Part shown: positions 17,018-58,181 of the stretch, one piece after another | Layout of the letters: each line of letters opens with the position of its first letter | How positions within the stretch are numbered: the first letter of the stretch is position 1 | DNA from: Candidatus Caldarchaeum sp. | GTDB lineage: Archaea; Thermoproteota; Nitrososphaeria_A; Caldarchaeales; Caldarchaeaceae | NCBI GenBank assembly: GCA_038896555.1 | Contig: JAWACZ010000005.1 | Span: 1 to 63,470, forward strand | Reading direction: 5' to 3' | DNA: 63,470 nucleotides | The notes under the pieces: generated by a model | Told to the model about the DNA's origin: nothing | Databases searched by the model: none | The model's input: the letters and a program-made list of their open reading frames with translations, nothing else | Position numbers and translations under genes: made by a program

Positions 17018-17242
17018 ATGACTTCGCAAGCCATTCACACAAAGGACCAATCTAAAAAAGTCAAGACACTGTTATCAAAGACTCCCGAACTTAGCGTCAA
17101 AGAGCTAGCAAGGGCTTCTCAGGTAAACAGACAGTTTATGGCTGGATTTTTAACGGCTCTGGAAGAAAGAGGCGATGTATATTCAAGAAAAGTTGGGCCG
17201 GCTAGGATTTATTTTAATAGCGAGGTGAAAAGTGGTGAGTGA
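17018..17242 (+). CDS. Small winged-helix DNA-binding protein (candidate controller of the downstream methyltransferase/nuclease genes)
   Basis: 74 aa. LSVKELARASQVNRQFMAGFLTALEERGDVYSRKVGPARIYF fits an HTH-plus-wing pattern. Its 3' end overlaps the methyltransferase start by 11 nt. Confidence 0.5.
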   Translation: MTSQAIHTKDQSKKVKTLLSKTPELSVKELARASQVNRQFMAGFLTALEERGDVYSRKVGPARIYFNSEVKSGE

Positions 17243-18515: not shown

Positions 18516-18532
18516 GATGGAGACATGGTGAT

Positions 18533-30142: not shown

Positions 30143-31201
30143 ATGTTTCAAGCCATCTCGCCGGAGGGTGTGGAAGTTTCTGAAATAAAGATCGGTCGTT
30201 CCCTCCTTCTTTCGATGTACAGGGACATGGTTATGGCTAGGATTTTGGATGCGTGGCTGATGCGTCTGCAGCGGATGGGTTTGGTTGGGCTTTACGCACC
30301 CTCGGAAGGCCAGGAGGCGGCATACGTTGGCACAGCCTACGCACTTGAAGATGAGGACTGGGTTTTCCCGCTGTACCGCGAGCTCCCAACATACATAGCC
30401 AGAAAAGTACCCATCCAAGAAATCCTAAACAGACATCTCCAAAACTCCGGAGACCGTTTGAAAGGACGTGACATCGCTATCTACGGAGACGTTAGATACA
30501 ACATTGTGCCAGCCCCGGTCCCAGTTTCCCTTCACACATCCTCAGCGGTCGGGTTTGCGCTGGCGTTTAGAATGAAGGGAGAGAGACGTGTTGTGATGAA
30601 TTATTTCGGTGAAGGAGCCACATCCAAGGGAGATTTGCATGAGGCGTTGAACTTCGCAGGCGTCTTCAAAGCTCCTATCGTGTTTGTATGCGTCAACAAC
30701 CAGTACGCGCTTTCTCTGCCCGTAACCTGCCAGACAGCCGCCCCCACCATCGCAGACAAAGCTGTTGCCTACGGGTTTGAGGGTGTCAGAGTTGACGGCA
30801 ATGATGTTGTTGCATGCTATTTAGCTGCTGAGAAGGCGGTGGAGAAGGCGAGGAAAGGCTTGGGTCCAGCGTTGTTGGAAACGGTGACATACAGGCTTGG
30901 GCCGCACACCACAGCCGACGACCCGAGCCGCTACAGGAACGAGGAGGAGGTGGAGAAATGGCGTGCAAAAGACCCGATAAAACGTCTGAAAAAGTTCCTC
31001 ATAGACCATGGTATGTGGAGCGGGTCGGATGACCGCTCGCTCTGGGCCGAATACGAGGAAACTGTTCGGAAAACGGCCGACGAATGCGTAAATGTTCCTA
31101 AATTACCATACACAGTTATTTTCGAAGATGTCTACGCCTCCGAACTTTGGCATTTGGCTGAGGAAAGAAACGAGCTTTTAGAAGACCTCAAAACAATCTA
31201 G
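30143..31201 (+). CDS. 2-oxoacid (pyruvate/branched-chain) dehydrogenase E1 component alpha subunit
   Basis: The TPP-binding region GEGATSKGDLHEALNFAGVFKAPIVFVCVNNQYA and YRLGPHTTADDPSRYR are both typical of E1-alpha. No E1-beta, E2 or E3 gene is nearby. Confidence 0.8.
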   Translation: MFQAISPEGVEVSEIKIGRSLLLSMYRDMVMARILDAWLMRLQRMGLVGLYAPSEGQEAAYVGTAYALEDEDWVFPLYRELPTYIARKVPIQEILNRHLQNSGDRLKGRDIAIYGDVRYNIVPAPVPVSLHTSSAVGFALAFRMKGERRVVMNYFGEGATSKGDLHEALNFAGVFKAPIVFVCVNNQYALSLPVTCQTAAPTIADKAVAYGFEGVRVDGNDVVACYLAAEKAVEKARKGLGPALLETVTYRLGPHTTADDPSRYRNEEEVEKWRAKDPIKRLKKFLIDHGMWSGSDDRSLWAEYEETVRKTADECVNVPKLPYTVIFEDVYASELWHLAEERNELLEDLKTI

Positions 31202-31311: not shown

Positions 31312-31722
31312 CTACTCAGCAGCTGTGAACCATTTGATGTCAAGTATGCTGCCGATTCGTTGCTCGTTGAAGACTGGATTCACTCTCAATCCCGCCGAAG
31401 GCTTGACAACCGGGTCGAGCCTGTGCATCAGCCCGCCTTGAACATCCCTGAACTTCACGTAGACCCATGTAGTCGGCTGAACGGTGGAGCCGTCAGATAA
31501 GGTTACGTGGGAGATGGTGTATGTGACAACTTCGCCGACGGGTTCAACCTCGTAGTATTCTACGACGGGTTTGAGACAGCTTGTGCAGTAGGCTCTCGGC
31601 GGTATGATGGATTTTTTGCATTCGCCGCAACGGCTGGCGATAAGCTTTCCCTGTCTTAGGCCGTTGAGAAACTTCGAGAGAGCAACACCGGCAGGATATT
31701 CGTAAAAGCTTTCGATGCTCAT
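31312..31722 (-). CDS. DUF35 protein (rubredoxin-like zinc ribbon plus OB fold)
   Basis: CGECKKSIIPPRAYCTSC is followed by an OB-fold segment (GEVVTYTISHV...VYVKF...GLRVNPVF). Confidence 0.75.
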   Translation of the reverse strand: MSIESFYEYPAGVALSKFLNGLRQGKLIASRCGECKKSIIPPRAYCTSCLKPVVEYYEVEPVGEVVTYTISHVTLSDGSTVQPTTWVYVKFRDVQGGLMHRLDPVVKPSAGLRVNPVFNEQRIGSILDIKWFTAAE

Positions 31723-32381
31723 ATCCTACCAGCCTCGACAGGCGTGAAGTATTCTATGTCGAGTATGCTGCCAACCCTTTTCTCAGGCTCCTTCCAAACC
31801 GGTCGCACACGCATCCCCACATAGACTTTGTCAGGCTCTACGCCGTCCAGCTTGTGCAGAATGCCTGCCGCATGTAAAACCGTTTTCGACGAACCGCATG
31901 TTCTAAGAGTGTTTTCAAACCATATCACAGCAACTATCACAGGTTTTTCAAGCCTTACGCCAGGGTCTGTACCGATGTACGATAGAGAGTATGTGGAGAC
32001 TTTTCCGACGCCGTTATGTTCAACCCATTCGCTGGCGTCTCTGAAACACCATTCGCAGAAAACTCGGGGCGGTATCATCACACGGCCGCAGCCTGTACAT
32101 TTTGTTCCAAGGATTTTACCCTCTTTAAGACCTTTTAGAAAACGTGAGATAGCGTGGCCAGCTGTGTGTTCATACCTGAACATCATACGCCAACGTGTGA
32201 GGATTAGGTTGTCGATATCCCATCCCTCCACTTCTGTGTATTTTTTGGCGAGCGAAGACTCCCAGCTTTCAAGCCTGCCGAAATCCCTCATCAAGTCATA
32301 CGTTGTGAATAGCTTTCTGACATCTTCTGGTAGTTGCTGAAGGTAGGTTTGGGTGTATTTAGCTGAGGTTGCTTTAGTCAT
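31719..32381 (-). CDS. DUF35 protein with an N-terminal extension of about 85 aa
   Basis: The likely start is the ATG at 32381-32379, which overlaps the stop of the upstream thiolase-like gene (ATGA). CTGCGRVMIPPRVFCEWC plus an OB fold (GKVSTYSLSYI...VAVIWFE...GMRVRPVW) are present. The track ORF runs on to 32567. Confidence 0.7.
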   Translation of the reverse strand: MTKATSAKYTQTYLQQLPEDVRKLFTTYDLMRDFGRLESWESSLAKKYTEVEGWDIDNLILTRWRMMFRYEHTAGHAISRFLKGLKEGKILGTKCTGCGRVMIPPRVFCEWCFRDASEWVEHNGVGKVSTYSLSYIGTDPGVRLEKPVIVAVIWFENTLRTCGSSKTVLHAAGILHKLDGVEPDKVYVGMRVRPVWKEPEKRVGSILDIEYFTPVEAGRI

Positions 32382-33535
32382 GCCTTGCACACCACCACCT
32401 GTCCCACCTGCATTAAATCCCCCCAGGCCTGCGCAACTCCGACGTAGGCGTTTGGAACCTGTCTCTTCCCAGCTCTGCCGGAAAGCTGCCAGTAAAGCTC
32501 GGCCACTTTCATCAGCCCCGCTGCGGCTATCGGGTTGCCCACTCCAAGCAACCCGCCCGAAGGACATGTCGGATAGTCTCCATCCCTTTCCAGCTGACCT
32601 TCAGCCAGCAGCTTCGGAGCCAGGCCAGGCTTGCCCAGCAGAGCATCTAGATGATGGAGCTCCTTGTATGTGAACGGGTCGTAGGGCTCGAAAACATCTA
32701 TCTGCTTGAGCGGGTTCGTTATCCCCGCCATCTTGTACGCCTGCTGAGCCGCTAGGTAAACGTAGTAGGGATAGCCTAGGTCGCGGTTTGTCCAGAACTG
32801 GCTGTCAAGGCATGCGCCCACGCCGTCCAGCCACACAGGCGAGTCTGTGACCTTTCGGGCCTCATGCTCTGAGGTGAAAAGCAGCGCCACCGCCCCGTCC
32901 GAAGTCGGGCTTATGTCAAGCCTGTTCACAGGCCAGACCAGCACAGGAGATTTCAAAACGTCTTCGACTGTTATCTTCGCGGCAAGCTGGGCGTAGGGAT
33001 GGTCTAGTGCGTTAGACTTGTTCTTTACAGCCACTCTCGCTATCAGCTCTTTGGAGAGATGGTGCATCTCCATGTAACGCCGCATCTCAAGGGCGAATAT
33101 CCAGATAAGGTTGGGGCCTAAGGGTTGCTCAAGCACCGGGTCGAAGATTGTTCTGAAAAGAGCTTGGGCATGGGGGTATGGATGGCTCATCTTCTCCCAA
33201 GCGACTACAAGCACTTTGTCGAAAACCCCTGAAGCCACATGCCACCAGCCAGCCACTGCAACCCCAACACCTGTACCGCCTCCGACGAAAACCCTTGAAA
33301 ACATTTTTCCAACGCAGTCAACGGAATCGGCTGCGAGAAGACCCTTGTGATGGTAGCCGTCGAACGCGTCGGGGGCAGACCCCGCGACAACCGCGTCAAC
33401 GTCTTTGAAGGAAAGGCCGCAGTCGTCTAAACATTTTCTGACAGCTTCGAAGACCAGCTCTTGCGGAGTCAGAGGCTGCATCGAACGGAAGTAAGTCATG
33501 CCAGCCCCCACAATAGCAACCCGACGGTTCAACAA
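32378..33535 (-). CDS. Thiolase-fold (SCP-x/nsLTP-type) protein lacking the nucleophilic Cys and the GHP His
   Basis: RVAIVGAGMT, SDGAVALLF and PSGGLLGVGNPIAAAG...QLSGRAGKRQV are thiolase-like. SRVFVGGGTGV occupies the position of xxACASG, and GNP replaces GHP. The likely TTG start at 33535 is 2 nt after the upstream stop (track start 33577). Confidence 0.75.
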   Translation of the reverse strand: MLNRRVAIVGAGMTYFRSMQPLTPQELVFEAVRKCLDDCGLSFKDVDAVVAGSAPDAFDGYHHKGLLAADSVDCVGKMFSRVFVGGGTGVGVAVAGWWHVASGVFDKVLVVAWEKMSHPYPHAQALFRTIFDPVLEQPLGPNLIWIFALEMRRYMEMHHLSKELIARVAVKNKSNALDHPYAQLAAKITVEDVLKSPVLVWPVNRLDISPTSDGAVALLFTSEHEARKVTDSPVWLDGVGACLDSQFWTNRDLGYPYYVYLAAQQAYKMAGITNPLKQIDVFEPYDPFTYKELHHLDALLGKPGLAPKLLAEGQLERDGDYPTCPSGGLLGVGNPIAAAGLMKVAELYWQLSGRAGKRQVPNAYVGVAQAWGDLMQVGQVVVCKA

Positions 33536-33536
33536 G

Positions 33537-34637
33537 TCACACCTCCACGCTGAGAAAGACCGCCGAACCTGCGTCAACGACCTCGCCGTCCGGGGATGCC
33601 GTTAAACAGGTCCTCCACTTTCCCGTCGTCAACAGCTTGACAGACTGGGCCAAACGTTGTTGGCCGGCGGCGTTGAGCGGATAGCCCATGCCGATACATC
33701 CTCCTGAAGGGTTGACAGGCATTTGGCCGTCTGTGTTGAAGCTGCCTTTTCTAAGCATTTTGTGCGGAGCTTCCTCCAGCTCCAGCGATTCCAGGAACAT
33801 CAGCTCCGTGTGGGCGAAAGGCTCAGCAACCTCGACAAAATCTACCTTCTTGCTTCCGGCTTGCTTGAACGCTTTCGCCACCGCATACTTGGCCCATAAC
33901 GCAGTACCCCAATCTCTCAAAGCAAGGTCAGATGAGTGGCTGCCGAACGCATGCCCAACACCCTTCACAACAACCTTCCCAAACCTCCTGTCCGATGTGA
34001 TTATTACTGCTGCGGCGTAGTCTGCGAGCTGGGCTACGTGGCCTTTCTTCAAAGGCTCCGAAACACTCTCGGACCCCTCAACGTCCTCCAACGAGACTTC
34101 TCCAGCATAGGCTGATGAAGGATTCTTTAAAGCGTTCTTCTTGTTCTTGACCGAGACCAGCGACATGTCTGTGGCTTCAGCGTTGTTTTTTTGCAGATAA
34201 GCTTTGGCGTCGAGCCCGGCTATGACGAAGTGATGAGGGCATAAAGGCCTGACGATGTGTGGGTCGAAAGTGTTAAGGACAATCTCTGGATAGTTAACGA
34301 TGTTCGAGGGTCTTGCGTAAGCTGTTACCATTACTGTCTTGAAGTGACCGGTTTTGACAAGCATGTAGGCGTGGAAGAATGCGTTCAAGCCATCGTTGGA
34401 GACGAGCGTGTTGAACTTCAGCCTAGCGCCAACCTGGTCGGGAGTGTATGAATCCGGTATGCTTATCCCCTCATAGTAATCCATCCCACTTGAAACTATC
34501 CCATCAACATCTGCTGGTGTCATCCCTGCATCTTGATAGGCTTTCTTGGCGGCATCGAACAACATCTCTCTGAAATCCATCTCTGGATAACGTGTTTTGC
34601 AGGGTATTTCTCCCACGCCAGCTATCCAGACATCCAA
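33537..34637 (-). CDS. Thiolase-fold (SCP-x/nsLTP-type) protein lacking the nucleophilic Cys (GYP instead of GHP)
   Basis: MDVWIAGVGEIP and NPSGGCIGMGYPLNAAG are thiolase-like. LVSNDGLNAF occupies the position of the CxS nucleophile motif. Confidence 0.75.
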   Translation of the reverse strand: MDVWIAGVGEIPCKTRYPEMDFREMLFDAAKKAYQDAGMTPADVDGIVSSGMDYYEGISIPDSYTPDQVGARLKFNTLVSNDGLNAFFHAYMLVKTGHFKTVMVTAYARPSNIVNYPEIVLNTFDPHIVRPLCPHHFVIAGLDAKAYLQKNNAEATDMSLVSVKNKKNALKNPSSAYAGEVSLEDVEGSESVSEPLKKGHVAQLADYAAAVIITSDRRFGKVVVKGVGHAFGSHSSDLALRDWGTALWAKYAVAKAFKQAGSKKVDFVEVAEPFAHTELMFLESLELEEAPHKMLRKGSFNTDGQMPVNPSGGCIGMGYPLNAAGQQRLAQSVKLLTTGKWRTCLTASPDGEVVDAGSAVFLSVEV

Positions 34638-34977
34638 TCACAAAACCCCATTTTCGTAGAGCTGCTTGTAAGGTCGTTTATAAGGAGTATTGTCACAGCC
34701 CCCTGCAACCATCTGCTCTCAATAGTAGCTAGGCAGATAATGCATCCAGAGCTGTTATACTGCAACCACATTCGAAGGCGTAAAAAGCCAGCCTCCGCAC
34801 ATTCCTCCTTCACAAATACATACTGTTTCGGCAGGGAAAGTGAGACAATCGATTTTCTATTTCTATCAGCCTTGAGGTTGATTAAGGACGTTGCTTATTA
34901 GTCGTGGACACTTTCGATGTCTGTCAGCCAAACAACGTATATATATCATTTCTTGTTCAATAAATGCAGTGAACGGA

Positions 34978-36072
34978 ATGCTGACCGTTGAAAACTTGGT
35001 CAAAAAGTTCGGACACGTTAACGCGGTCAACGGAGTATCTCTTAATGTTGAAAAAGGTGAGTGCTTGGCTCTGCTTGGGCCAAGTGGATGTGGAAAGACC
35101 ACAACGCTGCGCTGTGTTGCGGGGTTGGAGAAACCCGACGAGGGTGAGATTAAGATAGACGACCATGTTGTTTTCTCTAAGAATGTGTTTCTACCACCTG
35201 AGAAAAGAAGCGTTGGCATGGTCTTCCAGAGTTACGCCCTCTGGCCTCACATGACCGTGTTCGACAACATAGCTTACCCTTTAAAAATAAGGAAATATCC
35301 CAAGCATATGATTCGGTCTGAAGTAAATCACGTACTAGAACTTGTGGGCTTGTCTGGGCTTGAAAAAAGATATCCAAGTCAACTTAGCGGCGGGCAACAA
35401 CAGCGTGTCGCGCTGGCTAGGGCAATAGTCTACAAGCCGATTCTTCTTCTTTTTGACGAGCCGTTAAGCAACCTTGACGCCAACCTCAGAGAAAAGATGA
35501 GGGTTGAGCTGAAACGGTTGCTAAAAAAGATCGGGCTTACCTCTCTTTACGTGACGCATGACCAGGAAGAAGCTTTCGTTATAGCCGACAAGGTTGCTGT
35601 GATGAACGCTGGAAAAGTGATTCAGACCGGTATGCCTATAGAGATATACGAAAGACCTTCCAGCAGATTTGTTGCAGAGTTCATAGGGCGTTCAAACCTG
35701 ATTGAAGTAAGGGTGGTTGAGAGAGGCAGCGGTGACTCCGATGGGTTGATTTCGTTTAAGAAGCTAGAAGACGTTCTGCTAAGATGTAAAGTTCCTGACT
35801 ATGTTCGCATGGACGGCATGGCAGTCATAAGGTCTAACGAAATATTGATATACGAGACCAAACCTGCAGCGCAGTATAACGTACTTTCCGGAACGATATC
35901 CTTCATCGAGTTTCGTGGTCAGCATGTTGATCTCAGGGTAGATGTCGGCCAAGGATTGGAACTTCTGGTCAGTACCCATCGATATTGTGGATTAGATTCT
36001 TTGAGCAGCCTGGAAGTGGGCAAAAAGGTTTATCTTCAAGTGAAGCCGCAAGCCATAACACTCATCAGATAA
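34978..36072 (+). CDS. ABC transporter ATP-binding protein (PotA/FbpC/MalK type with a C-terminal TOBE-like domain)
   Basis: GPSGCGKTT, LSGGQQQRVALARA and LLLFDEPLSNLD are present. The likely start is the ATG at 34978 (MLTVENLVKKFG), with TATATATA about 35 nt upstream. The track ORF starts at 34891. Confidence 0.85.
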   Translation: MLTVENLVKKFGHVNAVNGVSLNVEKGECLALLGPSGCGKTTTLRCVAGLEKPDEGEIKIDDHVVFSKNVFLPPEKRSVGMVFQSYALWPHMTVFDNIAYPLKIRKYPKHMIRSEVNHVLELVGLSGLEKRYPSQLSGGQQQRVALARAIVYKPILLLFDEPLSNLDANLREKMRVELKRLLKKIGLTSLYVTHDQEEAFVIADKVAVMNAGKVIQTGMPIEIYERPSSRFVAEFIGRSNLIEVRVVERGSGDSDGLISFKKLEDVLLRCKVPDYVRMDGMAVIRSNEILIYETKPAAQYNVLSGTISFIEFRGQHVDLRVDVGQGLELLVSTHRYCGLDSLSSLEVGKKVYLQVKPQAITLIR

Positions 36073-36532: not shown

Positions 36533-37678
36533 TCAGTAGGATTTCGGCAGACCTAAAACATGTCTTCCGATGTAGCTTAAGATAAGCTCGTTGGTTACCG
36601 GCACGGTTATAAAGACTCTTGTCGCTGGGTAGAAAGTGATCATGTCTGTGTCGAGGTCGTATGCGTTGCCGCCCAACGTCTGCATCGCTATCTCAAACGC
36701 CTCCAACCCCGCCTCAGAAGCCAAATACTTCGCCATGTTGGCCTCAGCACCGACTTGTTTTCCGGCGTCATAAAGCCGCGCTGCCTCATAGTTCATAAGA
36801 CGGGCCGCCTCAAGATGGGCTTTAGCTCTCGCCATCCGGAACTGCAGTCCTTGGTACGCCCCTATGGGTTTGTCGAAGACAACCCTCTGCTTCGCATACT
36901 CTACACCCCTAGTCAGCACGTGATCGCCTAAGCCTATGCTGCAGGCCGCTATCAAAATCCTCTCGACGTTTAGGCCGTCAAACAAATAGTCAACCCCTCT
37001 TCCCTCACGTCCGATAAGGTTTTCAGCACCCAGCTCAACTTCGTCAAAATAAACGGTGTACTGTGTTTCTGGAGAGTATAACTCTATGTTGAGCGGCTCA
37101 AATGATATCCCGCTTGACTTGGTTTCGAAGACAAACAAGGATATGCCTTCGCGCTTGTCGCTCACTTCCTCGTATTTTTTCGTCCTAGCCACTACGAGCA
37201 TGTAGTCAGACTCACGTGCTCCTGTGATGAAAGTTTTCTGGCCGGTGAGTATGTAGCTTCCGTTCTTTTTCTTAGCGAAAGTTTTTATCCGCCACGTGTT
37301 GGAGCCAGCCTCGGTCTCGGTAACGGCGAAACTTATTTTTCTCGCCTCGTTGCATGTGGGGATTACAAACCTTTCAACCTGAGACCTTGTACCATGTTTT
37401 ACGATAATAGACCTTGAGAGATGCGTTGTCAGAAACTGTAGAAGCGGAAGCCCAGCACGTGCTAGGCCTTCTTGTACGAGGACGGCCTCCAAAAGCCCGT
37501 AACCAGCCACGCCATCAACCCCCATGCCCACTCCCGTGAGCCCGGCTTTCAGCAACCCGTCCCAGACAAGCTCAGGCTGTTTTTTCTCGCGCGCACACTG
37601 CAGCCAATACCGGCGGCCAACTTTCTCGCCGATCTTCTGGGCTGTTTGAAGAATCAAAACCTGCTCATCTGACAGCAT
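36533..37678 (-). CDS. Acyl-CoA dehydrogenase
   Basis: 381 aa. It contains FAVTETEAGSN and KTFITGA, and a C-terminal helical domain with AKYLASEA. Confidence 0.85.
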   Translation of the reverse strand: MLSDEQVLILQTAQKIGEKVGRRYWLQCAREKKQPELVWDGLLKAGLTGVGMGVDGVAGYGLLEAVLVQEGLARAGLPLLQFLTTHLSRSIIVKHGTRSQVERFVIPTCNEARKISFAVTETEAGSNTWRIKTFAKKKNGSYILTGQKTFITGARESDYMLVVARTKKYEEVSDKREGISLFVFETKSSGISFEPLNIELYSPETQYTVYFDEVELGAENLIGREGRGVDYLFDGLNVERILIAACSIGLGDHVLTRGVEYAKQRVVFDKPIGAYQGLQFRMARAKAHLEAARLMNYEAARLYDAGKQVGAEANMAKYLASEAGLEAFEIAMQTLGGNAYDLDTDMITFYPATRVFITVPVTNELILSYIGRHVLGLPKSY

Positions 37679-41282: not shown

Positions 41283-42446
41283 ATGAAATCATCTGGTCGA
41301 GGTGGCGTCAGTAAAACTGTGTCAGGCATCCTGATGATCATCTTCCTCGTCGTGGGGATAGGCGCCGGATATTTTGCGGGGCAGTCTGGTGCAACTACCC
41401 AAATTGTCACCGTGAGGGCGACTGCGACGCTCATGTCTACCGTGACGGTGACCGCCACGGTGACGCAGACCGCCACGCCGACGCCGAAGGTTTTCTACCC
41501 TGCCGAGCTTGTGGAGGCCGCTAGGAGGGAGGGTAAACTGGTAATCTACCATACCCTGCCGCCTGCCCAGATGGACAAGTTAGTGGCGGAGTTTAAGCAG
41601 CGCTTCCCAGGAATCGAGGTTGAAACATGGAGGGGTGGGACGGCGGAACTACTGTCTAAAGTGCTTGGCGAATACAGGGGCGGCGTCTACGCCGTGGATG
41701 TCCTCTTCGGGAGCGACGCGCCGTTCGTGGTGCTCCACAGAGAAGGAGTCCTAGCACGTAGACCTCCAGAAGTGGTCCTGCCTGATGGCTTCCCGAGTGA
41801 GCTCATACTCGACATTGGATACGCCATAAGGCGCATATTCTTCGTGCTAATGTATAACACGAAGCTTGTCTCAGCGGAGATGGCGCCTAAGACGATCGAG
41901 GACCTTGCAAAGCCAGAGTGGAGAGGCAAGATATCCGCAGCAGATTTCACCACACATACACCCACCATCTACTTCCTCATGCAGCTGAAAGAGATGTGGG
42001 GTGAGGAGAAGTTCTGGAACTGGATGAAGGGCTTGCTGGCTAACAAGCCGATCTGGAAGCCCGAAACCCTGCCTGCCGCCGTTGCCGTGGAGTCTGGAGA
42101 AGCTGCAGTAGCGCTTACCGTTCACACAAACGTTGTAGTGGCGCTGGATAGAAAAGCTCCAGTAGGGTGGACATGGTTGAATCCTCTTATGGGATGGTCA
42201 ACGCCGCTGACCATGGCTGCCAGACCACCGCACCCGAACACCGCTAAGCTCTTCATCCAATTCATGCTTGTGGATGGGGTTAAGACGATGCAGGAAATCG
42301 GTGAGATGCCGCCATTATTAAACAAAGACCTGCCGATCCACCCGGTTCTTCAGTCGATACCGCCCAATCTCAGGTGGCTGCCAAACAAGATTTACACAGA
42401 CCAAGAGAGAGAAGCCTTCGTTGCGGAAGTCAAAAAGCTACTCTAA
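41283..42446 (+). CDS. ABC transporter extracellular solute-binding protein (family 1; Fe(III)/thiamine/polyamine-like type)
   Basis: N-terminal TM anchor followed by a Thr/Val-rich linker (TVTVTATVTQTATPTP). The binding-protein body contains LVIYHTL...AVDVLFGSD. TATA AAGTATATAAG lies about 25 nt upstream. Confidence 0.7.
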   Translation: MKSSGRGGVSKTVSGILMIIFLVVGIGAGYFAGQSGATTQIVTVRATATLMSTVTVTATVTQTATPTPKVFYPAELVEAARREGKLVIYHTLPPAQMDKLVAEFKQRFPGIEVETWRGGTAELLSKVLGEYRGGVYAVDVLFGSDAPFVVLHREGVLARRPPEVVLPDGFPSELILDIGYAIRRIFFVLMYNTKLVSAEMAPKTIEDLAKPEWRGKISAADFTTHTPTIYFLMQLKEMWGEEKFWNWMKGLLANKPIWKPETLPAAVAVESGEAAVALTVHTNVVVALDRKAPVGWTWLNPLMGWSTPLTMAARPPHPNTAKLFIQFMLVDGVKTMQEIGEMPPLLNKDLPIHPVLQSIPPNLRWLPNKIYTDQEREAFVAEVKKLL

Positions 42447-42449
42447 ACT

Positions 42450-44174
42450 GTGACGCAATCGGCACGGCGTCCCCACATGCCACTGTCGAGCCTAACCGCC
42501 AGAAATATAATACTGGTAGCGGCTATCGCTATAACCGGATATCTGTCTCTGAACCCGATGGCCTGGCTCCTCTTCGGGAGCTTCTGGAGTGCGGACCCAG
42601 GGAAGCCAGGTCATTTCACACTAGAAAACTACATGAGGGTCTTCAGTTCAAGCGACCTTATCGTTTCCCTACTTAACTCGGCTTACTACGCCTTAGGTGC
42701 CGCGTTGATCTCGACGCTGATAGGCTTCGCGCTTGCATGGATAGTGACTAGGACTAACACACCCTTCAGGAGCATCATAGAGGTCATGGCTGTCATGCCC
42801 TACATGATTCCGATGCTACTTCTCTCGATAAGCTATGTCTTCCTTCTCAGCCCTAGGATGGGGATTATCAACAGTCTCTTAAAGGGGCTGTTCAACCTGA
42901 GCGAGGCCCCGTTCAACATCTACTCTCTAGAGGGGATGATATGGGTGATGGCGATCTTCGAAGCCCCATTCTCTTATCTGATAATCTCTGCAGCACTTAA
43001 GAACATGGACCCAACACTGGAGGAGGCCGGCAAAGTCGCAGGCTCATCTACCCTCTCGGTGGTTAGGAGAATTGTCATCCCGATACTGATGCCGGCTCTC
43101 CTCGCCTCTTTCATGATAAACGTGATAAGGTCACTGGAGATACTTGACATACCAGCTATCCTTGGGCTGCCAGCCCGTGTAATGGTTTTGCCGACGATGA
43201 TCTACACCACACTTTGGTCGGGGTTAGCTCCCGACCTGCGCGGGGCGACCAGCATCTCGGTCATATTGTTCGCCCTGACTGCGGGCCTGATATATTTATA
43301 CAGGTACTTTACTCAGCAGACATACAGGTACGCAACCATCGGAGGCCGTGGGCATACTCAAACTTTTAACGACATAGGAAAATGGAGATATGTCACGTTC
43401 GCATTCGCCTTGTTCTATTTTATGCTTTCAAGTGTCCTCCCCCTCTTAGTCATCCTATTCTTCTCCTTCATGCCGAGGCTCAAGGCTCCTGAGCTAGAAG
43501 ACCTTTGGAACCTAACGCTCAAGAACTACGTCGAAATCTTCAACTATCCCGTAGCATTCAGAGCGTTCTTCAATAGCCTCTTCCTCTCAACAGCCGGAGC
43601 GTCGTTAGCAATCCTCCTATGCTTCTTGGTATCTTACATCTCGGTGAGGATGCGCGGGAGGGGGAGCGGGATCCTCGAGACTGTAGCCTCGCTGCCCTTC
43701 GCCACGCCCAGCCTAGTCATGGCGGTAGGGTTGATGTGGGCATATCTTTTCATACCCATAGGCATATACGGGACCATCTGGATCCTCATGGTCGGGTACA
43801 TAACAAGGTTCCTGCCCTTCGGCATCCGCTCGGTTTCAGTGAGTCTTTTACAGATACATAAGGACCTCGAGGACTCCTCTAAAGTCTGTGGTGCATCATG
43901 GCTCAGGACTCTTTACAACATCCTCCTCCCCCTAGCAAGACCAGGAATAATAGCGGGATGGATCGTCCTAGCAGTTATCTTCCTGAGGGAGTTCAGCATC
44001 TCTATCCTTCTTTACAGGGCAGGCTCAGAAGTTCTTCCGGTAGTCATCTTTGACATGTACATCAACGGCTTCTGGCCCACTCTCAGCGCTATCGGCTCTT
44101 TAATGGTGGTCATTAGCTTGGCACTCACGTTCATCGCTCTCCGCCTAGGAAGGATCTCCAGCATAGCTGGCTAG
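42450..44174 (+). CDS. ABC transporter permease, fused double-domain (FbpB/ThiP-like)
   Basis: 574 aa with two tandem permease modules, each carrying an EAA-like loop (LEEAGKVAGSS..., LEDSSKVCGAS...). Confidence 0.8.
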   Translation: MTQSARRPHMPLSSLTARNIILVAAIAITGYLSLNPMAWLLFGSFWSADPGKPGHFTLENYMRVFSSSDLIVSLLNSAYYALGAALISTLIGFALAWIVTRTNTPFRSIIEVMAVMPYMIPMLLLSISYVFLLSPRMGIINSLLKGLFNLSEAPFNIYSLEGMIWVMAIFEAPFSYLIISAALKNMDPTLEEAGKVAGSSTLSVVRRIVIPILMPALLASFMINVIRSLEILDIPAILGLPARVMVLPTMIYTTLWSGLAPDLRGATSISVILFALTAGLIYLYRYFTQQTYRYATIGGRGHTQTFNDIGKWRYVTFAFALFYFMLSSVLPLLVILFFSFMPRLKAPELEDLWNLTLKNYVEIFNYPVAFRAFFNSLFLSTAGASLAILLCFLVSYISVRMRGRGSGILETVASLPFATPSLVMAVGLMWAYLFIPIGIYGTIWILMVGYITRFLPFGIRSVSVSLLQIHKDLEDSSKVCGASWLRTLYNILLPLARPGIIAGWIVLAVIFLREFSISILLYRAGSEVLPVVIFDMYINGFWPTLSAIGSLMVVISLALTFIALRLGRISSIAG

Positions 44175-44243: not shown

Positions 44244-45866
44244 ATGCCGTCACTTCAACAGGTTGCTCAACGCTACTATAAAGATCTCAGAGAATGGCTG
44301 GATATATTAGAGAAGAATGATATACTTGTTCGCGTGAAAGTTCCAGTACGGAAGGAGACAGAGCTCACACCTCTTGTCCGTCTCCAGTTCAGGGGCCTCC
44401 CCGAGGACCAGAGGAAGGGCTTCCTCTTCGAAAGGGTCACCGACGCCAAAGGCAGGATGTACGAAATGAAAGTCGCCACGGGAGTGTATGCCTCAAGCAT
44501 GAAGATGTATGCGATGGGGCTGATGTGCAAGCCGACCAACGAAGCGATCGCTGAGAAGTGGGCAAAGGCGCAGCTCGAGCCCATCGAGCCTAAGATCGTC
44601 GGTTCAGCACCGGTTCAAGAGATCGTTTACACCGGTAAGGACCTCCTAGAGGATGGGAAGGGCATTGAGGCGTTGCCAGTGCCTGTCGAGGTCCCTGGTT
44701 TCAGCGGCCAGATAAGGACAACCACTCAGTTCATAACAAAGACGCCCGACGGTACGTGGAGAAACATGGGCGAGTATTCTGGTCACATCTTCGGGAAGAC
44801 GAAACTCCTCTGGGAGATTAGCAGGGCGAACCACGGCTACGTACACTGGAAGGCTTGGAAGGAGCTCGGGAAGCCCATGCCTGCGGCGATAGTGATAGGC
44901 GGTCCACCGGTCTTCTTTTACGTCGCTGCTGCTAAGCTTCCCCACGGTGTCGACGAGCTGGCCGTCGCCGGCGGTTTCGCAGGCGAGCCAATAGAGCTGG
45001 TTAGGTGTAAGACCATAGACTTGGAGGTTCCAGCCCACGCCGAGATAATTGTGGAAGGGCTCGTGTCGACGGAATACGTGGAGCCAGGTAACTCTTTCGG
45101 TGAGTATAACGGCTACATGGCGACCGAGGTCATGCTTAGGCCACTATTCCAAGTAACTGCAGTGACGCATAGGCTGGACCCGATATTCGTCCACGTAATG
45201 AGCCAGTTCCCACCCAGCGAGAGCAGCAAGGTCAGATTGATCTCGTCTGAGAACGTATACCTCAAGTACCTGAAGCATGACTGCCGCCTGCCTGGAATAC
45301 TCGACGTAGCTTGGCACGAGATGAGCCAGGCTCAATGGTGCGTGATAAGGATCAAGAAGCAGGATAACGCTCATGCTTGGAGGGTCCTCCACTCGGCAGC
45401 TGCGTACGACGCTAGGTGGGGAAAGTTCTTCATAGTAGTTGACGAGGACATCGACCCCAGAGACCTAGATTCGGTTATCTGGGCCATGGGATGGCGCGTC
45501 CAGCCAGCGACCGATATGCAGGTCATCCATGGCAGGATTCCTGGCCTCGATATATCGGCGTACAGACCGGACGCTGACCCGAGGGAGAAAGAGTACCCGG
45601 GTAGGATAGGGAGCTCGGCAATCCTGATAGACGCCACGATCAAGTACCCATATCCGCCGACCTCGCTCCCGAGGAAGGAGTACATGGAGCGGGCCATTGA
45701 GCTCTGGAAGAGCCTCGGTCTCCCTGAGCTTAATCTTAAAAAACCATGGTATGGATACCAGCTAGGGTACTGGCCGAAAGAGTTCGAGAAGGACGCTGAG
45801 CTGGTGCTTAAAGGGGAGCACTACAAGGTAGGTGAGAGGCTAGAGAAGGGGAGGGTGCGAGTCTAG
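44244..45866 (+). CDS. UbiD-family (prFMN-dependent) decarboxylase/carboxylase, paralog 1
   Basis: 540 aa. The N-terminus DLREWLDILEKNDILVRVKVPV...ELTPL...FLFERV and the C-terminus FIVVDEDIDPRDLDSVIWAMGWRVQP are UbiD hallmarks. Confidence 0.85.
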   Translation: MPSLQQVAQRYYKDLREWLDILEKNDILVRVKVPVRKETELTPLVRLQFRGLPEDQRKGFLFERVTDAKGRMYEMKVATGVYASSMKMYAMGLMCKPTNEAIAEKWAKAQLEPIEPKIVGSAPVQEIVYTGKDLLEDGKGIEALPVPVEVPGFSGQIRTTTQFITKTPDGTWRNMGEYSGHIFGKTKLLWEISRANHGYVHWKAWKELGKPMPAAIVIGGPPVFFYVAAAKLPHGVDELAVAGGFAGEPIELVRCKTIDLEVPAHAEIIVEGLVSTEYVEPGNSFGEYNGYMATEVMLRPLFQVTAVTHRLDPIFVHVMSQFPPSESSKVRLISSENVYLKYLKHDCRLPGILDVAWHEMSQAQWCVIRIKKQDNAHAWRVLHSAAAYDARWGKFFIVVDEDIDPRDLDSVIWAMGWRVQPATDMQVIHGRIPGLDISAYRPDADPREKEYPGRIGSSAILIDATIKYPYPPTSLPRKEYMERAIELWKSLGLPELNLKKPWYGYQLGYWPKEFEKDAELVLKGEHYKVGERLEKGRVRV

Positions 45867-45926
45867 TCTAGAACAAGAGAGCTGTGGCTAAACTCATGTC
45901 CCCTGAATCGGGGATGGGGTCCATTC

Positions 45927-47375: not shown

Positions 47376-47450
47376 CGGCGAGCATCCGCATCTTTTCCAA
47401 AGCGCAACGACATCACTAGGTGGCGTCCTTTCCGTAGACGATGGGAAGAT

Positions 47451-48416: not shown

Positions 48417-48530
48417 GTCGATTAGTTCGGCCGCTAGGATTTAACTTTTTTACAACCAGTCTTTATCATCAGACAGGGAGCGTCCCGTCCTAACAACCTC
48501 TGTTATCCAGCCTGTCGGCAGGTCTTTACA

Positions 48531-56210: not shown

Positions 56211-58181
56211 CTACTCCTGTTGGAGAAATGGTAGTATTTTCTCAAAGAAGTCTAGGCTTTCAGGGTTTACCAACGCGTCTCTGTTGACTACCTTCCTACC
56301 GTTGATAATGTTCGACACAGCTATCTCCACTTTCTTCATATTGTATGTGTAGGGGATGTCAGGCGCTTCGATGATCATGGCTGGAACATGTCTTGGCGAG
56401 GCTCTCTCCCTAAGCTCTTTCTTCAATTTTTCCTTCAACTCTTCGGTCAGCTCATAACCTTTGGCCATTTTAACGAAAAGAATAATCCTCTGGTCTCCCT
56501 TCCAGTTCTGGCCCACGGCGATGCTGTCCGCAACCTCTTTAAAGCTCTCGACTATTCTGTAGATTTCAGCCGTTCCTATCCTGACACCCGACGGCTTCAG
56601 AACGGCGTCAGACCTCCCTAAAAAAGTGATGCCTCCGGTGTCGCTGTGGAATATTACGAAGTCGCCGTGCCTCCACACGCGTTTATGGGTATAGAACCTG
56701 AAGTAAGAGTCTAGGTATCTTTCATTCTCTGGGTCGTTCAGGAAGTAAAGCGGCATCGAAGGCGCCGGCGCCTCGCAAACAAGCTCACCCGTCTTATCGT
56801 ACACCGGCTCACCATCCTCGTCGTAGCATTTTATCTTCATTCCAAGAGCAGGCGACTGCAGCTGGCCAGCGTACACGGGAAGAGTTGGACTGCCGATGGC
56901 AAAACATCCGTTGATGTCTGTTCCTCCAGATATGGAGTTAAAGTGATGGTCTTTCTTTATTTCCCGGTATACCCATTCGAAACCGTCGGCCGACAGCGGG
57001 GAACCTGTCTGAGATATTTCACGAAGCGATGAGAGGTCGAAACTGTTCCGAGGCGAGGCGTTGACGCTTCTCAGATAGTTGATGTAGCTCGCGCTGCAGC
57101 CGAAGAACGTGACCTGATGCTCGTCAACAAGCCTCCACATAGTTTTCCAGTTGGGATAATTTGGGTCGCCGTCATAAAGGAGTATGGTTGACCCGACTGC
57201 AAGAGAAGTCATCATCCAGTTCCACATCATCCAGCTCGGTGAGGTTATGTATGTTATCACGTCGTCAGGCTTTAGGTCGCTGTGAATTACGAGTTCTTTT
57301 AGATGGTTGACAAGTATTCCAGCTACTGACTGAACCATGCACTTCGGCTTACCCGTCGTCCCCGAAGAAAACATTATGTAAACTGGCGTCGATGAGTCAA
57401 CCTGCTCGAAGATGAAATCATTCCCTCTGCTCATAAAATCCTCGTAGGATACGGCTTTGTCGATAAAATCTATTTTGGATCTGTCGCGGAGATAGGGGAC
57501 GACGATTACACTCTTTATTGACGGGATTCTCTTCACTATTTTCGCCACCCTCTCCAGGACGTTGAAGCTTTTCCCCCTGTAGTGGTAGCCGTCGACGGTG
57601 AACATCACTTTCGGGCTGACTTGCTCAAACCTGTCAACGGCTGCGTCGACTCCAATCTCGGTGCCGGCGGAAGACCATGCCGCTCCAAGGGAGGTAGCGG
57701 CAAGCATGGCTATGCATGTTTCGGCGGTGTTTGGCATGTAGCCTACGACCCTGTCACCCACGCCGACACCAACCTCCCTCAAACCTACTGCGATGCCAGC
57801 AGCCTTACGATAGACCTCCAGATACGACAGCTTCCTGAGAGAGCCGTCTTCTCTGACAGCGATTAAGGCAGTTTTGTCATCTCTTCTCCTGAGAAGGTTT
57901 TCGGCAAAGTTGAGTCTTGCGCCAGCGAACCATGAGGCTCCTGGAAACTTGTTGAGGTCATCAACAACTTGGTTGTATCGTTTTGATGCTTTAACTTCCA
58001 CAAAATTCCAGACAGTATCCCAAAAGGCAGGGATGTTTTCAACGGACCAGTCGTAGAGCTGGAAATATGCTTTGTCCTTGTACGGGTCTATGTCAAGCCC
58101 GTTTCTCCTGTCGGCGTACTCAATGAAACGGGTCATGTCGGCTTTTTCGACAACATCGTCGGAAGGCTTCCAGAGGAGCAA
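56211..58181 (-). CDS. Acetoacetyl-CoA synthetase (AMP-forming acyl-CoA synthetase family)
   Basis: The N-terminus LWKPSDDVVEKADMTRF...LYDWSVENIPAFWDTVW is typical of acetoacetate-CoA ligases. The AMP-binding motif is MFSSGTTGKPK. 656 aa. Confidence 0.8.
   Translation of the reverse strand: MLLWKPSDDVVEKADMTRFIEYADRRNGLDIDPYKDKAYFQLYDWSVENIPAFWDTVWNFVEVKASKRYNQVVDDLNKFPGASWFAGARLNFAENLLRRRDDKTALIAVREDGSLRKLSYLEVYRKAAGIAVGLREVGVGVGDRVVGYMPNTAETCIAMLAATSLGAAWSSAGTEIGVDAAVDRFEQVSPKVMFTVDGYHYRGKSFNVLERVAKIVKRIPSIKSVIVVPYLRDRSKIDFIDKAVSYEDFMSRGNDFIFEQVDSSTPVYIMFSSGTTGKPKCMVQSVAGILVNHLKELVIHSDLKPDDVITYITSPSWMMWNWMMTSLAVGSTILLYDGDPNYPNWKTMWRLVDEHQVTFFGCSASYINYLRSVNASPRNSFDLSSLREISQTGSPLSADGFEWVYREIKKDHHFNSISGGTDINGCFAIGSPTLPVYAGQLQSPALGMKIKCYDEDGEPVYDKTGELVCEAPAPSMPLYFLNDPENERYLDSYFRFYTHKRVWRHGDFVIFHSDTGGITFLGRSDAVLKPSGVRIGTAEIYRIVESFKEVADSIAVGQNWKGDQRIILFVKMAKGYELTEELKEKLKKELRERASPRHVPAMIIEAPDIPYTYNMKKVEIAVSNIINGRKVVNRDALVNPESLDFFEKILPFLQQE

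Follow-up and report, generated by a model that had tools for sequence, protein, structure and literature searches.

The window analyzed here, 63,470 nucleotides from the genome of the hot-spring archaeon Candidatus Caldarchaeum sp., contains four tightly packed, co-directional genes (A, B, C and D) on the minus strand, at positions 31312-34637. Gene A (33537..34637, minus strand; 366 aa) encodes a protein with the SCP2-type thiolase fold that is best described as a divergent, PRK06066-like partner subunit; gene B (32378..33532, minus strand; 384 aa) encodes a protein of the same fold that belongs to the PRK06065 family and is the candidate catalytic subunit (Gly85, Tyr284-Asp-Pro-Phe and Asn333). 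The other two products are DUF35 proteins, C (31719..32381, minus strand; 220 aa), which combines a Cys4 zinc ribbon and an OB fold with a conserved N-terminal extension of some 65-80 aa, and D (31312..31722, minus strand; 136 aa), a minimal DUF35 protein of the SSO2064 (PDB 3irb) ortholog type. Gene A starts with TTG, with an in-frame TGA immediately 5' of it; farther upstream, TTATAAA (34683-34677) and GGGGT (34649-34645), read from the sequence, form a putative archaeal promoter and ribosome-binding region of the operon (34645..34683, minus strand). The TTG start of B agrees with the homologs that begin with MTRRVAIVG, compared to which the longest, 399-aa reading frame is over-extended; the 282-aa longest frame of C is over-extended as well, and its start was set to yield 220 aa. 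A Shine-Dalgarno-like site, GGAGGTG (33540..33546, minus strand; also read from the sequence), is located within the 3' end of A, 7 nt 5' of the TTG of B. The coordinates, the shared strand and the tight junctions bear out the four-gene operon proposed in the initial annotation, including the tight coupling of the DUF35 genes, the translation of both being coupled to that of the thiolase-like genes; ATGA overlaps, a kind of junction that had been noted, join C to the stop codon of B and D to that of C, but the 2-nt gap also reported is in fact one of 4 nt, between A and B.

The order A-B-C-D on one strand is found in 79 of the 85 loci compared, which come from Caldarchaeales, Bathyarchaeia, Sulfolobales, Thermoproteales, Asgard archaea and a few bacteria, and relatives of B are present in at least 593 species genomes. 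The cassette is a widespread unit, present in hundreds of archaeal species, that is not peculiar to the Candidatus Caldarchaeum genome. That the gene order stays strict across archaeal phyla and in some bacteria while the flanking genes change speaks for the four products forming a single stoichiometric assembly. Literature searches found no study of the A-B-C-D cassette, although the structure of SSO2064 is already known.

Among the Pfam domains, A matches Thiolase_C_1 and Thiolase_C, and B matches Thiolase_C_1 and Thiolase_N. B is a member of NCBIfam NF004721 (PRK06065; 596.6 bits, over the cutoff of 455), a family that carries no name beyond 'thiolase domain-containing protein', whereas the best match of A, NF004722 (278 bits), is under the cutoff of 516; no characterized subfamily absorbs either protein. 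Archaeal acetoacetyl-CoA thiolases are defined by the motifs CxS, HDxF and GHx (PMC12960953), all three of which are gone from both A and B. In HMMER alignments to solved thiolases (7yvy, 6esq and 4yzo), VGGGTGV of B aligns with AACASGG, which puts Gly85 at the nucleophile position, and the HDCF and GHP motifs are represented by YDPF and GNP, respectively. In A, the nucleophile loop has a 3-residue deletion (LVS---NDGLNAF) and Ser80, the HDCF motif corresponds to AEPF, and GHP to GYP. The alignments place no Cys at the nucleophile position of either protein, so that the loss of the acyl-accepting Cys and the replacement of the GHP histidine, both pointed out in the initial annotation, are borne out; the SDGA motif, ascribed there to both proteins, is present only in B (TSDGA), the counterpart in A being ADYA. 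The missing Cys is not an alignment accident because no column of A or B contains Cys in more than 53% of 78 cassettes. As a control, the canonical thiolases that adjoin the cassette in 15 Bathyarchaeia loci retain HDCF and GHP in all 15 cases, and a strict Cys-motif pattern matches 10 of them. As judged from their sequences, A and B cannot perform thiolase chemistry, given the loss of the three motifs and the lack of an alternative conserved Cys.

The thiolase-like subunits A and B are not equivalent. Across the 78 cassettes, 143 of the 385 alignment columns of B are at least 95% conserved, compared to 10 columns among the 78 orthologs of A; pairwise identities average 70% among the B proteins and 47% among the A proteins. 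In B, YDPF, VGGGTGV and GVGNPIAAAG are essentially invariant, and all 78 sequences have Gly at the nucleophile position; this subunit is extremely conserved and keeps a Tyr that resembles the base of thiolase-fold aldolases. By contrast, A shows S/G/A/T/C at the first would-be catalytic position, DDxF, HDxF or AEPF at the second and Y/H/W/N at the third; because these positions drift freely and few columns are conserved, A is probably a non-catalytic partner subunit. B is at least 57% identical across domains, an unusually high level for a peripheral catabolic enzyme that counts against the assignment of the cassette to C-C bond cleavage that is discussed below.

The AlphaFold2 model of B (pLDDT 75.8, pTM 0.84) matches SCP2-type thiolases, Sal and Ltp2 in Foldseek with query-normalized TM scores of 0.80-0.88 (0.81-0.82 for Sal, 9myr, and Ltp2, 6ok1); the active-site loops are modeled with low confidence (residues 55-68, 117-141 and 324-334, pLDDT below 50).

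C and D both match Pfam zf-ChsH2 and OB_ChsH2_C, which together make up DUF35, and the best PDB match of each is 3irb (E = 6.5e-16 for D); the model of C also matches this structure, along with ChsH2-DUF35 and Shy-DUF35. The 3irb fragment itself is most similar to the D gene product of a Sulfolobaceae cassette (49.5% identity, both 144 aa). Thus, SSO2064, a structural-genomics DUF35 protein to which no function had been assigned, is the D-type subunit of the cassette in Sulfolobales and the only cassette member with a solved structure; it was determined alone, without the partners, and the 2010 paper on SSO2064 describes neither the four-gene operon nor the Cys-less partners. The N-terminal extension of C, put at about 85 aa in the initial annotation, is present, but amounts to approximately 82 aa when counted up to the start of the Pfam zinc ribbon and to approximately 63 aa beyond D; it is conserved in Caldarchaeales and some Asgard archaea, consists mainly of short helices predicted with pLDDT 72-88 (mean for C, 85.8) and has no match in the PDB.

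These features bring up the possibility that the complex is not an enzyme but an acyl-CoA- or lipid-binding scaffold that organizes or regulates other enzymes, such as acyl-CoA dehydrogenases (ACADs) or hydratases, in an extension of the DUF35 role as a staple. DUF35 mediates the assembly of the archaeal FAS complex (10.1101/2024.07.05.601840) and of Ltp2-ChsH, both multi-enzyme complexes; A and B both lack every canonical catalytic residue, and C bears the conserved, docking-like arm. Nevertheless, a purely organizing role seems unlikely: conservation in B peaks in precisely the loops that line the thiolase active site (VGGGTGV, YDPF and PSGGLLGVGNPIAAAG), scaffolding alone hardly explains the near-invariance of so many columns of B across two domains of life, and it is A rather than B that evolves in a scaffold-like manner.

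The cassette was initially placed next to an ACAD gene; such a gene, with all ACAD domains detected by Pfam, does lie upstream (36533..37678, minus strand), but an opposite-strand ABC ATPase gene stands between it and A. In five Caldarchaeales relatives (L006-L010), the ACAD ortholog (71-78% identity) shares the strand of A and precedes it by 3-32 nt (11 nt in L006), and the ACAD is the ancestral upstream partner in the operon that was displaced here by the ABC ATPase gene. An acetoacetate-CoA ligase (56211..58181, minus strand; TIGR01217, 776 bits, cutoff 520.9; NF002937, 836 bits, cutoff 639) is encoded 22 kb from the cassette in the window; in L008, L009 and L010, its ortholog (70-77% identity) immediately precedes the ACAD gene, in the operon order acetoacetate-CoA ligase, ACAD, A-B-C-D. 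In the cultured Metallosphaera tengchongensis, two ACAD genes precede A-B-C-D and an ACS-family ligase gene follows, and the context is similar in one Sulfolobaceae locus (L039) and one Thermoproteales locus (L075), so that ACADs and acyl-CoA ligases are co-operonic with the cassette in three archaeal orders. Overall, 17 of about 80 loci (a raw count) have an ACAD gene at a distance of no more than 6 kb, and 5 Asgard loci have a crotonase gene nearby. These neighborhoods point to a role in acyl-CoA metabolism. Neither the 3-hydroxyacyl-CoA dehydrogenase family nor HMG-CoA synthase was recognized among the recurrent neighbor gene clusters.

The canonical thiolase/DUF35 pairs that divergently adjoin the cassette in the 15 Bathyarchaeia loci suggest a link to acetoacetyl-CoA metabolism; together with the co-operonic acetoacetate-CoA ligase in Caldarchaeales, they would fit a thiolase-like retro-Claisen enzyme, in which water or another non-Cys nucleophile would cleave a 3-ketoacyl-CoA, such as acetoacetyl-CoA. 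We consider this very unlikely because the invariant Gly of B leaves no conserved Ser, Cys or His at the nucleophile position, the reaction would waste one thioester's worth of energy, and we know of no precedent for hydrolytic C-C cleavage in the thiolase superfamily. A different neighborhood, with methylmalonyl-CoA mutase beside the cassette in 10 loci (9 of the Bathyarchaeia type and one deltaproteobacterium; MeaB in 8 and adenosyltransferase in 7 of these), would fit a (methyl)malonyl-CoA-type decarboxylase, with B producing the acyl-CoA enolate via loss of CO2 instead of retro-aldol cleavage, as in KS-CLF/KSQ domains or in the weak activity of the trypanosomal SCP2-thiolase-like protein. 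In KAS III-type enzymes, His and Asn of the Cys-His-Asn triad stabilize the enolate in decarboxylation, and B has the set Gly/Tyr/Asn at the three triad positions. The trypanosomal precedent, TbSLP, with the motif YDCF, slowly decarboxylates malonyl-CoA, but Sal showed no such activity (PMC12329534); furthermore, the mutase neighborhood amounts to essentially one lineage and one probable transfer, and the operons of Caldarchaeales and Sulfolobales hold ACADs and ligases rather than carboxylases or mutases, which makes decarboxylation an improbable function of the cassette.

The interpretation that we favor, tentatively and somewhat short of calling it probable, is that A-B-C-D form a heteromeric, cysteine-independent acyl-CoA C-C lyase that follows an aldolase-like route. 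The core of the complex would be an A/B thiolase-fold heterodimer, with one DUF35 zinc-ribbon/OB protein, C or D, clamping each paralog; A would be the structural partner that lost the catalytic positions, and C and D would staple the assembly, with the N-terminal arm of C possibly docking another enzyme. B would bind an acyl-CoA, probably a 3-hydroxyacyl-CoA, and break or make the C2-C3 bond with no covalent acyl-enzyme intermediate, by the same retro-aldol logic as Ltp2 and Sal: the invariant Tyr284 of YDPF may act as the base on the 3-hydroxyl, whereas the backbone of Gly85 and Asn333 may stabilize the thioester enolate. Such a complex could act downstream of the acyl-CoA ligase and the ACAD in the degradation of a short or branched carboxylic acid and replace the usual dehydrogenase-plus-thiolase steps; the lack of a 3-hydroxyacyl-CoA dehydrogenase neighbor is expected if an aldolase substitutes for oxidation and thiolysis. 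It also counts against the lyase function that many cassettes are isolated amid unrelated genes and that the archaeal operons, in contrast to the ChsH and Shy systems, lack a hydratase gene.

Several known systems share parts of this architecture. The archaeal acyl-Cys thiolases with an adjacent DUF35 gene have the same thiolase subfamily fold as A and B, but they retain CxS, HDxF and GHx, all three missing from A and B, as well as the acyl-Cys intermediate, and combine one thiolase with one DUF35 protein rather than two with two. In the multicomponent acyltransferases PhlACB and MucABC, a DUF35 protein accompanies one active and one inactive subunit of the thiolase superfamily, as proposed for the cassette, but the active subunit (PhlC/MucB) uses Cys88/Cys87, the inactive partner is HMGS-like rather than SCP2-thiolase-like, and there is a single DUF35.

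The steroid side-chain retro-aldolases Ltp2-ChsH2(DUF35) and Sal-Shy(DUF35) share with B the SCP2-thiolase fold, Gly in place of the nucleophilic Cys and a Tyr that opens the HDxF-equivalent motif. Sal has Gly at the nucleophile position, and the Tyr base of Ltp2 (YDHF) and Sal (YDCY), like that of SLP (YDCF), occupies the first HDxF position (PMC12329534), where B has Tyr284; the equivalence of Tyr284 with Ltp2 Tyr294 is one of motifs, derived via SCP2-thiolase alignments and not from a direct residue alignment of B and Ltp2. The aldolase general acid is absent in B, with Asn333 at the position of Ltp2 Tyr344 and Pro286 at that of Sal Cys304, so that the Ltp2/Sal mechanism cannot simply be copied to B. 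Ltp2 and Sal depend on a DUF35 partner, as the cassette, judging from its genes, likewise would, but they are homodimeric, in contrast to the heteromeric A and B pair, and their DUF35 is fused to a MaoC hydratase, whereas the cassette DUF35 proteins are free-standing. Besides, B is less similar to Ltp2/Sal than to true thiolases (76 vs 164 bits).

Outside the archaeal families of A and B themselves, the best-scoring family for B is PRK08313 (261 bits), and A matches PRK07937 (128 bits); these are the Ltp3/Ltp4-type proteins of actinobacteria (Rv3521-Rv3523 region), which, as in the cassette, are two adjacent Cys-less thiolase-fold paralogs accompanied by two DUF35 modules. Like B, the B-like partner of this pair combines Gly at the site of the nucleophile with Y-x-P-F and x-N-P, although the middle motif is YVPF or YAPF rather than YDPF. 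In Tsukamurella, the order is tandem DUF35, PRK07937 'lipid-transfer protein', PRK08313, and family name, gene order and sizes lead us to infer that these are true ltp4/ltp3 orthologs; a Rhodococcus locus encodes two ACADs, two MaoC proteins, a thiolase-like remnant, a B-like protein and DUF35. The identity to the actinobacterial pair is only 33-37% for B and 25% for A, with both far under the family cutoffs, and the DUF35 modules are fused in one upstream protein rather than encoded by two downstream genes. In actinobacteria, the setting is sterol catabolism and, to our knowledge, archaea have no sterols. In PMC6593523 (citing Wilbrink 2012), ltp3 and ltp4 are described, on the basis of genetics, as aldol lyases acting on C24-branched sterol side chains. 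Ltp2-type retro-aldolases, named in the initial annotation as the closest Cys-less precedent, are, together with Sal, the nearest Cys-less relatives that are functionally understood, but the actinobacterial ltp4/ltp3-type pair with its tandem DUF35 is closer to the cassette.

Genes A and B, which encode SCP2-type thiolase-fold proteins, and C and D, which encode DUF35 proteins, form a head-to-tail series on the minus strand from 34637 to 31312, with the starts of C and D overlapping the TGA of the preceding gene; the four-gene operon proposed in the initial annotation is thereby borne out. A (33537-34637) encodes 366 aa from a TTG start with an in-frame TGA directly upstream, and its full-coverage homologs span 366-368 aa; a TTATAAA box (34683-34677) and a GGGGT element (34649-34645) are found 5' of it. 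Judging by the sequence, B most likely starts with the TTG at 33532, 7 nt past a GGAGGTG site, which yields a 384-aa protein; its homologs begin MTRRVAIVG, and the longest, 399-aa ORF is over-extended. The 282-aa ORF of C is over-extended as well: C starts with the ATG at 32381 (220 aa) and is followed by D, with a start at 31722 (136 aa). A shares 29% identity with B, and C 36% with D. The source of the window is an Aigarchaeota/Caldarchaeum-like archaeon, and the closest homologs of all four proteins come from Candidatus Caldarchaeum, archaeon HR01 and Nitrososphaerota MAGs. Pfam detects the SCP2-type thiolase C-terminal domain in A and B, with Thiolase_N additionally in B, and the ChsH2 zinc ribbon and OB fold (together, DUF35) in C and D. 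No thiolase-like genes besides A and B were detected within the window.

In HMMER alignments to solved thiolases, RVFVGGGTGV of B falls opposite KIEAACASGG, which puts Gly85 at the nucleophile position, and the nucleophile loop of A contains a 3-residue deletion (LVS---NDGLNAF) adjoining Ser80. The HDCF position is occupied by YDPF in B (identical in 78 of 78 sequences) and by AEPF in A (variable elsewhere); the GHP position reads GNP in B, where it is invariant, and GYP in A (Y/H/W/N elsewhere). Thus, the loss of the acyl-accepting Cys from both proteins and the replacement of the GHP histidine, as noticed at first reading, hold up; a Cys at the nucleophile position was specifically sought in these alignments and found in neither A nor B. 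The fold hallmarks ascribed to both proteins are otherwise right, but SDGA is present in B only, with ADYA in A. There is no conserved Cys anywhere in family A or family B across 78 cassettes. A canonical thiolase with a misaligned Cys is ruled out, Cys accounting for no more than 53% of the sequences in every column among the 78 A and 78 B orthologs. As a control, canonical thiolases divergent from the cassette in 15 Bathyarchaeia loci retain HDCF and GHP in all 15 cases, and a strict Cys-motif pattern matched 10 of the 15. The hallmarks of archaeal acetoacetyl-CoA thiolases are CxS, HDxF and GHx (PMC12960953). A and B lack all three, and they show the additional feature of these enzymes, a thiolase fold (Pfam, Foldseek) with an adjacent DUF35 gene, C and D being directly downstream. 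Another solved archaeal thiolase-fold protein with an altered nucleophile, ST0096 of Sulfolobus tokodaii (PDB 4yzo), has Ser at this position (RVDNTSGSGG), keeps HDMA and GHP, has no function assigned to it, and is distinct from families A and B.

The subunits of the cassette are unequally conserved. The mean pairwise identity across 78 cassettes is 47% for A, 70% for B, 47% for C and 39% for D; columns conserved at 95% or more, counted for A and B, number 10 in A and 143 of 385 in B, the latter including VGGGTGV, (E)xYDPFxYKELHH, PSGGLLGVGNPIAAAG and AQAWGDLMQ. The would-be catalytic positions of A drift: the nucleophile position holds S, G, A, T or C, the second motif reads DDxF, HDxF or AEPF, and the third has Y, H, W or N. 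Because B is strongly conserved and these positions of A drift, we infer from the sequences that B holds the working pocket, with A as a structural partner. The alternative that the entire complex is a non-enzymatic scaffold is improbable. The Cys4 zinc ribbon is retained in C as well as in D, and the two proteins have a C-terminal R-x-G-S-I-x-D-I-x-Y-F motif in common. C has an N-terminal extension that is conserved among Caldarchaeales and in some of the Asgard archaea; AF2 models it as short helices (pLDDT 72-88), and a search of the PDB yielded no structural match.

B belongs to NCBIfam NF004721 (PRK06065; 596.6 bits, cutoff 455). A scores below the cutoff of NF004722 (PRK06066; 278 bits, cutoff 516), which is passed by the A partners in Metallosphaera (594 bits) and in another cassette locus, L003 (525 bits), so that A of the window is a divergent ortholog of this family. 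Both families are named merely 'thiolase domain-containing protein', with no function assigned, and no characterized subfamily takes in A or B. A pattern scan across GTDB, with one genome for each species, detected a B relative in at least 593 species. The best 80 of these loci come from Caldarchaeales, Bathyarchaeia, Sulfolobales, Desulfurococcales/Acidilobaceae, Thermoproteales, Geoarchaeota, Geothermarchaeota, and Thor-, Hermod-, Hod- and Promethearchaeota, as well as from a few bacterial MAGs (Chloroflexota, Actinomycetota, WOR-3 and a deltaproteobacterium; 61-65% identity). Conservation of the cassette amounts to about 63-70% identity in many archaeal phyla, Asgard archaea among them. The neighborhood survey called for at the outset shows that the A-B-C-D unit recurs: all four genes are in this order on one strand in 79 of the 85 loci examined, with flanks that vary by lineage. 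Among cultured organisms, Metallosphaera tengchongensis carries the cassette on a complete chromosome (A, 594 bits against NF004722; B, 793 bits against NF004721). In the Sulfolobales cassette, the D-type subunit is SSO2064 (PDB 3irb), which is 49.5% identical to, and of the same length as, a Sulfolobaceae D; the 2010 paper on this protein does not discuss its own operon. A literature search found no published study of the A-B-C-D cassette. Nevertheless, the family is not categorically new because it is visible in databases and one of its subunits is in the PDB.

The genomic context of the cassette differs between lineages. An acyl-CoA dehydrogenase (ACAD) gene, placed next to the cassette in the initial annotation, is indeed present in the window (36533-37678, minus strand), but a gene for an ABC transporter ATPase with TOBE domains (34891-36072, plus strand; true start probably near 34978, MLTVENLVKKFG...) intervenes between it and A. 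In five Caldarchaeales relatives, A is preceded on its own strand, at a distance of 3-32 nt, by an ACAD ortholog (71-78% identity), so the ATPase gene looks like a local rearrangement or insertion that broke this synteny. A genuine acetoacetate-CoA ligase precedes ACAD in three of the five relatives; in the window, the ligase is 22 kb off (56211-58181, minus strand). A gene for the 2-oxoacid dehydrogenase E1 alpha subunit (30143-31201, plus strand; PF00676; TIGR03181, 398 bits, cutoff 411) is convergent to D and lacks an E1 beta neighbor; in three of the five relatives (L006, L007 and L010), the same lone gene follows D in convergent orientation. The Metallosphaera operon consists of two ACAD genes, A-B-C-D and an ACS-family ligase, and similar ACAD/ligase operons are found in one Sulfolobaceae MAG and one Thermoproteales MAG. 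By raw counts among the approximately 80 best loci, 17 have an ACAD gene and 8 a ligase gene within 6 kb; methylmalonyl-CoA mutase is encoded nearby in 10, of which 8 also have MeaB and 7 adenosyltransferase, and crotonase in 5, all Asgard. No MaoC gene was found in the window operon or among the recurrent neighbors of the cassette. Each of ACAD, ligase, mutase and crotonase is confined to some lineages and is therefore an ambiguous clue to the substrate; taken together, these neighbors place the cassette in acyl-CoA metabolism, where a ligase-dehydrogenase-(hydratase)-lyase sequence fits. That B is a (methyl)malonyl-CoA decarboxylase is quite unlikely.

In loci of the Bathyarchaeia type (L003, L012, L013, L015, L016, L020, L021, L023-L026, L029, L036, L041 and L051), a canonical thiolase and DUF35 pair lies upstream of the cassette on the opposite strand, in divergent orientation. 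The ten mutase-bearing loci are mostly from this set, with the addition of L017 and L064, the latter from a deltaproteobacterial MAG. In L064, ACAD, mutase and the cassette are located together, which suggests that they moved by transfer as a block.

Elsewhere in the window, a cluster at 44244-50207 comprises genes for two paralogous decarboxylases of the UbiD family (44244-45866 and 45927-47375) and, on the minus strand, for the beta-keto acid cleavage enzyme BKACE (47451-48416) and an acetolactate-synthase-type TPP enzyme (48531-50207). It is preceded by genes for a solute-binding protein and a permease of the ABC type (41283-44174). Two large subunits of the molybdopterin-binding aldehyde oxidase/xanthine dehydrogenase family are encoded at 12432-14696 (minus strand) and 50326-52578 (plus strand). 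A restriction-modification pair (17232-19249, plus strand) consists of an N6_N4_Mtase DNA methylase, which has a 'Development and cell death' (DCD) domain fused to its N-terminus, and, after it, a BsaWI-type restriction endonuclease. Around this pair, between the 16-kb and 20-kb positions of the window, the GC content drops to 0.43-0.45, which suggests that this region is horizontally acquired DNA.

The reading that we tentatively favor, at a level just short of probable, is a heteromeric, Cys-independent acyl-CoA C-C lyase, in which B would be catalytic, A a pseudo-subunit, and C and D dedicated DUF35 clamps. A bolder version, which we consider rather unlikely, is an unrecognized core enzyme of TACK and Asgard archaea, namely, a heterotetrameric Cys-independent C-C lyase or synthase whose substrate is a small central CoA ester. 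This would not be a niche catabolic aldolase; examples include a non-homologous HMG-CoA lyase or a 3-hydroxy-3-methylacyl-CoA lyase feeding acetoacetate or acetyl-CoA. If true, the pseudo-subunit and the two specialized DUF35 proteins would represent a new kind of asymmetric active-site assembly. What makes the cassette interesting is how widely it occurs, that it is misannotated as thiolase and that tractable Sulfolobales carry it. Genome annotation labels these genes 'acetyl-CoA acetyltransferase', an impossible role, and therefore too many thiolases are counted, and a step is missed, when the metabolism of Bathyarchaeia, Aigarchaeota, Sulfolobales and Asgard archaea is reconstructed. The SSO2064 crystal structure has been without context since 2009. 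Given that the cassette occurs in cultured, genetically tractable Sulfolobales, its function is directly testable. To our knowledge, Cys-less thiolase-fold aldolases have so far been known only from bacterial steroid catabolism; the cassette would be related to these but set apart by its heteromeric core, its pair of dedicated DUF35 subunits and its Gly/Tyr/Asn pocket.

The AF2 model of B (pLDDT 75.8, pTM 0.84), which, like that of C, is informative at the fold level only, matches in Foldseek the SCP2-type thiolases 7yvy, 6esq, ST0096/4yzo and zebrafish SCP2-thiolase (query-normalized TM 0.82-0.88) and the steroid side-chain retro-aldolases Sal (9myr) and Ltp2 (6ok1; 0.81-0.82); solved structures share at most 32% identity with B. 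The low-confidence loops of the model (55-68, 117-141 and 324-334) plausibly become ordered only within the complex. The motif that reads HDCF in SCP2-thiolases is YDCF in SLP, YDHF in Ltp2 and YDCY in Sal, its Tyr serving as the base that takes the proton from the 3-hydroxyl during the retro-aldol reaction, and Sal has Gly at the position of the nucleophilic Cys of thiolases (PMC12329534). As in Ltp2 and Sal, Gly85 replaces Cys within the SCP2-thiolase fold of B, and Tyr284 falls opposite the HDCF/HDAF His in the alignments to 6esq and 7yvy, its equivalence to the aldolase Tyr being drawn through the PMC12329534 motif rather than 6ok1 residues. Both residues of B are invariant, whereas A has Ala271 at the Tyr position. 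In contrast, the general acid of the aldolases, which is Tyr344 at the GHP position in Ltp2 and Cys304 within the Tyr motif in Sal, is not retained: Ltp2 Tyr344 and Sal Gln352 correspond to the invariant Asn333 of B (49-50 residues from the Tyr in all three proteins), and Sal Cys304 and Ltp2 His296 to the invariant Pro286. Furthermore, the DUF35 proteins of the cassette are free-standing, with no MaoC hydratase fused or co-encoded. Because the Gly and Tyr are shared and the acid positions differ, B is aldolase-like but not a copy; by analogy, an enolate-stabilizing pocket without covalent catalysis would be the common ground with the known aldolases. Hydrolytic retro-Claisen activity of B is highly improbable.

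Among other known systems, PhlACB/MucABC differ from the cassette: their PhlC-like subunit uses a Cys nucleophile, and its inactive partner is HMGS-like. A PhlACB-like acyltransferase is ruled out, given that the Cys88 equivalent is absent and A is SCP2-thiolase-like rather than HMGS-like, and so is the ordinary KT/DUF35 pair of archaeal fatty-acid synthase, in which the thiolases are active enzymes. After their own archaeal families, B scores best on NF006180 (PRK08313; 260.9 bits, cutoff 514), and A gives a score on NF005924 (PRK07937; 127.6 bits, cutoff 419), both below cutoff. A plasmid search found no B ortholog, all matches being less than 37% identical, and returned two actinobacterial loci. 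The Tsukamurella locus (L086) encodes a 309-aa tandem DUF35 protein, a 359-aa PRK07937 'lipid-transfer protein' (593 bits) and a 390-aa PRK08313 protein (734 bits); its gene order and sizes match those of the Rv3521-ltp4-ltp3 region, and we infer that these are the same genes. PMC6593523, which cites Wilbrink 2012, describes ltp3 and ltp4 as aldol lyases for C24-branched sterol side chains. The Rhodococcus locus (L087, Rhodococcus qingshengii plasmid pLP1) encodes two ACADs, two MaoC proteins, a thiolase-like remnant, a B-like protein (36.8% identity to B) and DUF35. The remnant, a 304-aa 'hypothetical protein' (4093-5007 of L087) directly upstream of the B-like protein, is truncated and degenerate, with weak similarity to A and B, and may be a still more reduced form of the non-catalytic partner. 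In the B-like proteins of the two actinobacterial loci, the nucleophile position is Gly and the other two motifs read Y-V/A-P-F and S/A-N-P. Thus, like the cassette, the Ltp3/Ltp4-type pair combines two adjacent Cys-less thiolase-like paralogs with two DUF35 modules (L086, L087) and carries the Gly/Y-x-P-F/x-N-P signature in the larger paralog. The original suggestion of a possible C-C bond cleaving or forming complex is supported with refinements: A and B are not equivalent, the unit is widespread among archaea, and the actinobacterial Ltp3/Ltp4-type pair is a closer analogue of the cassette than Ltp2.
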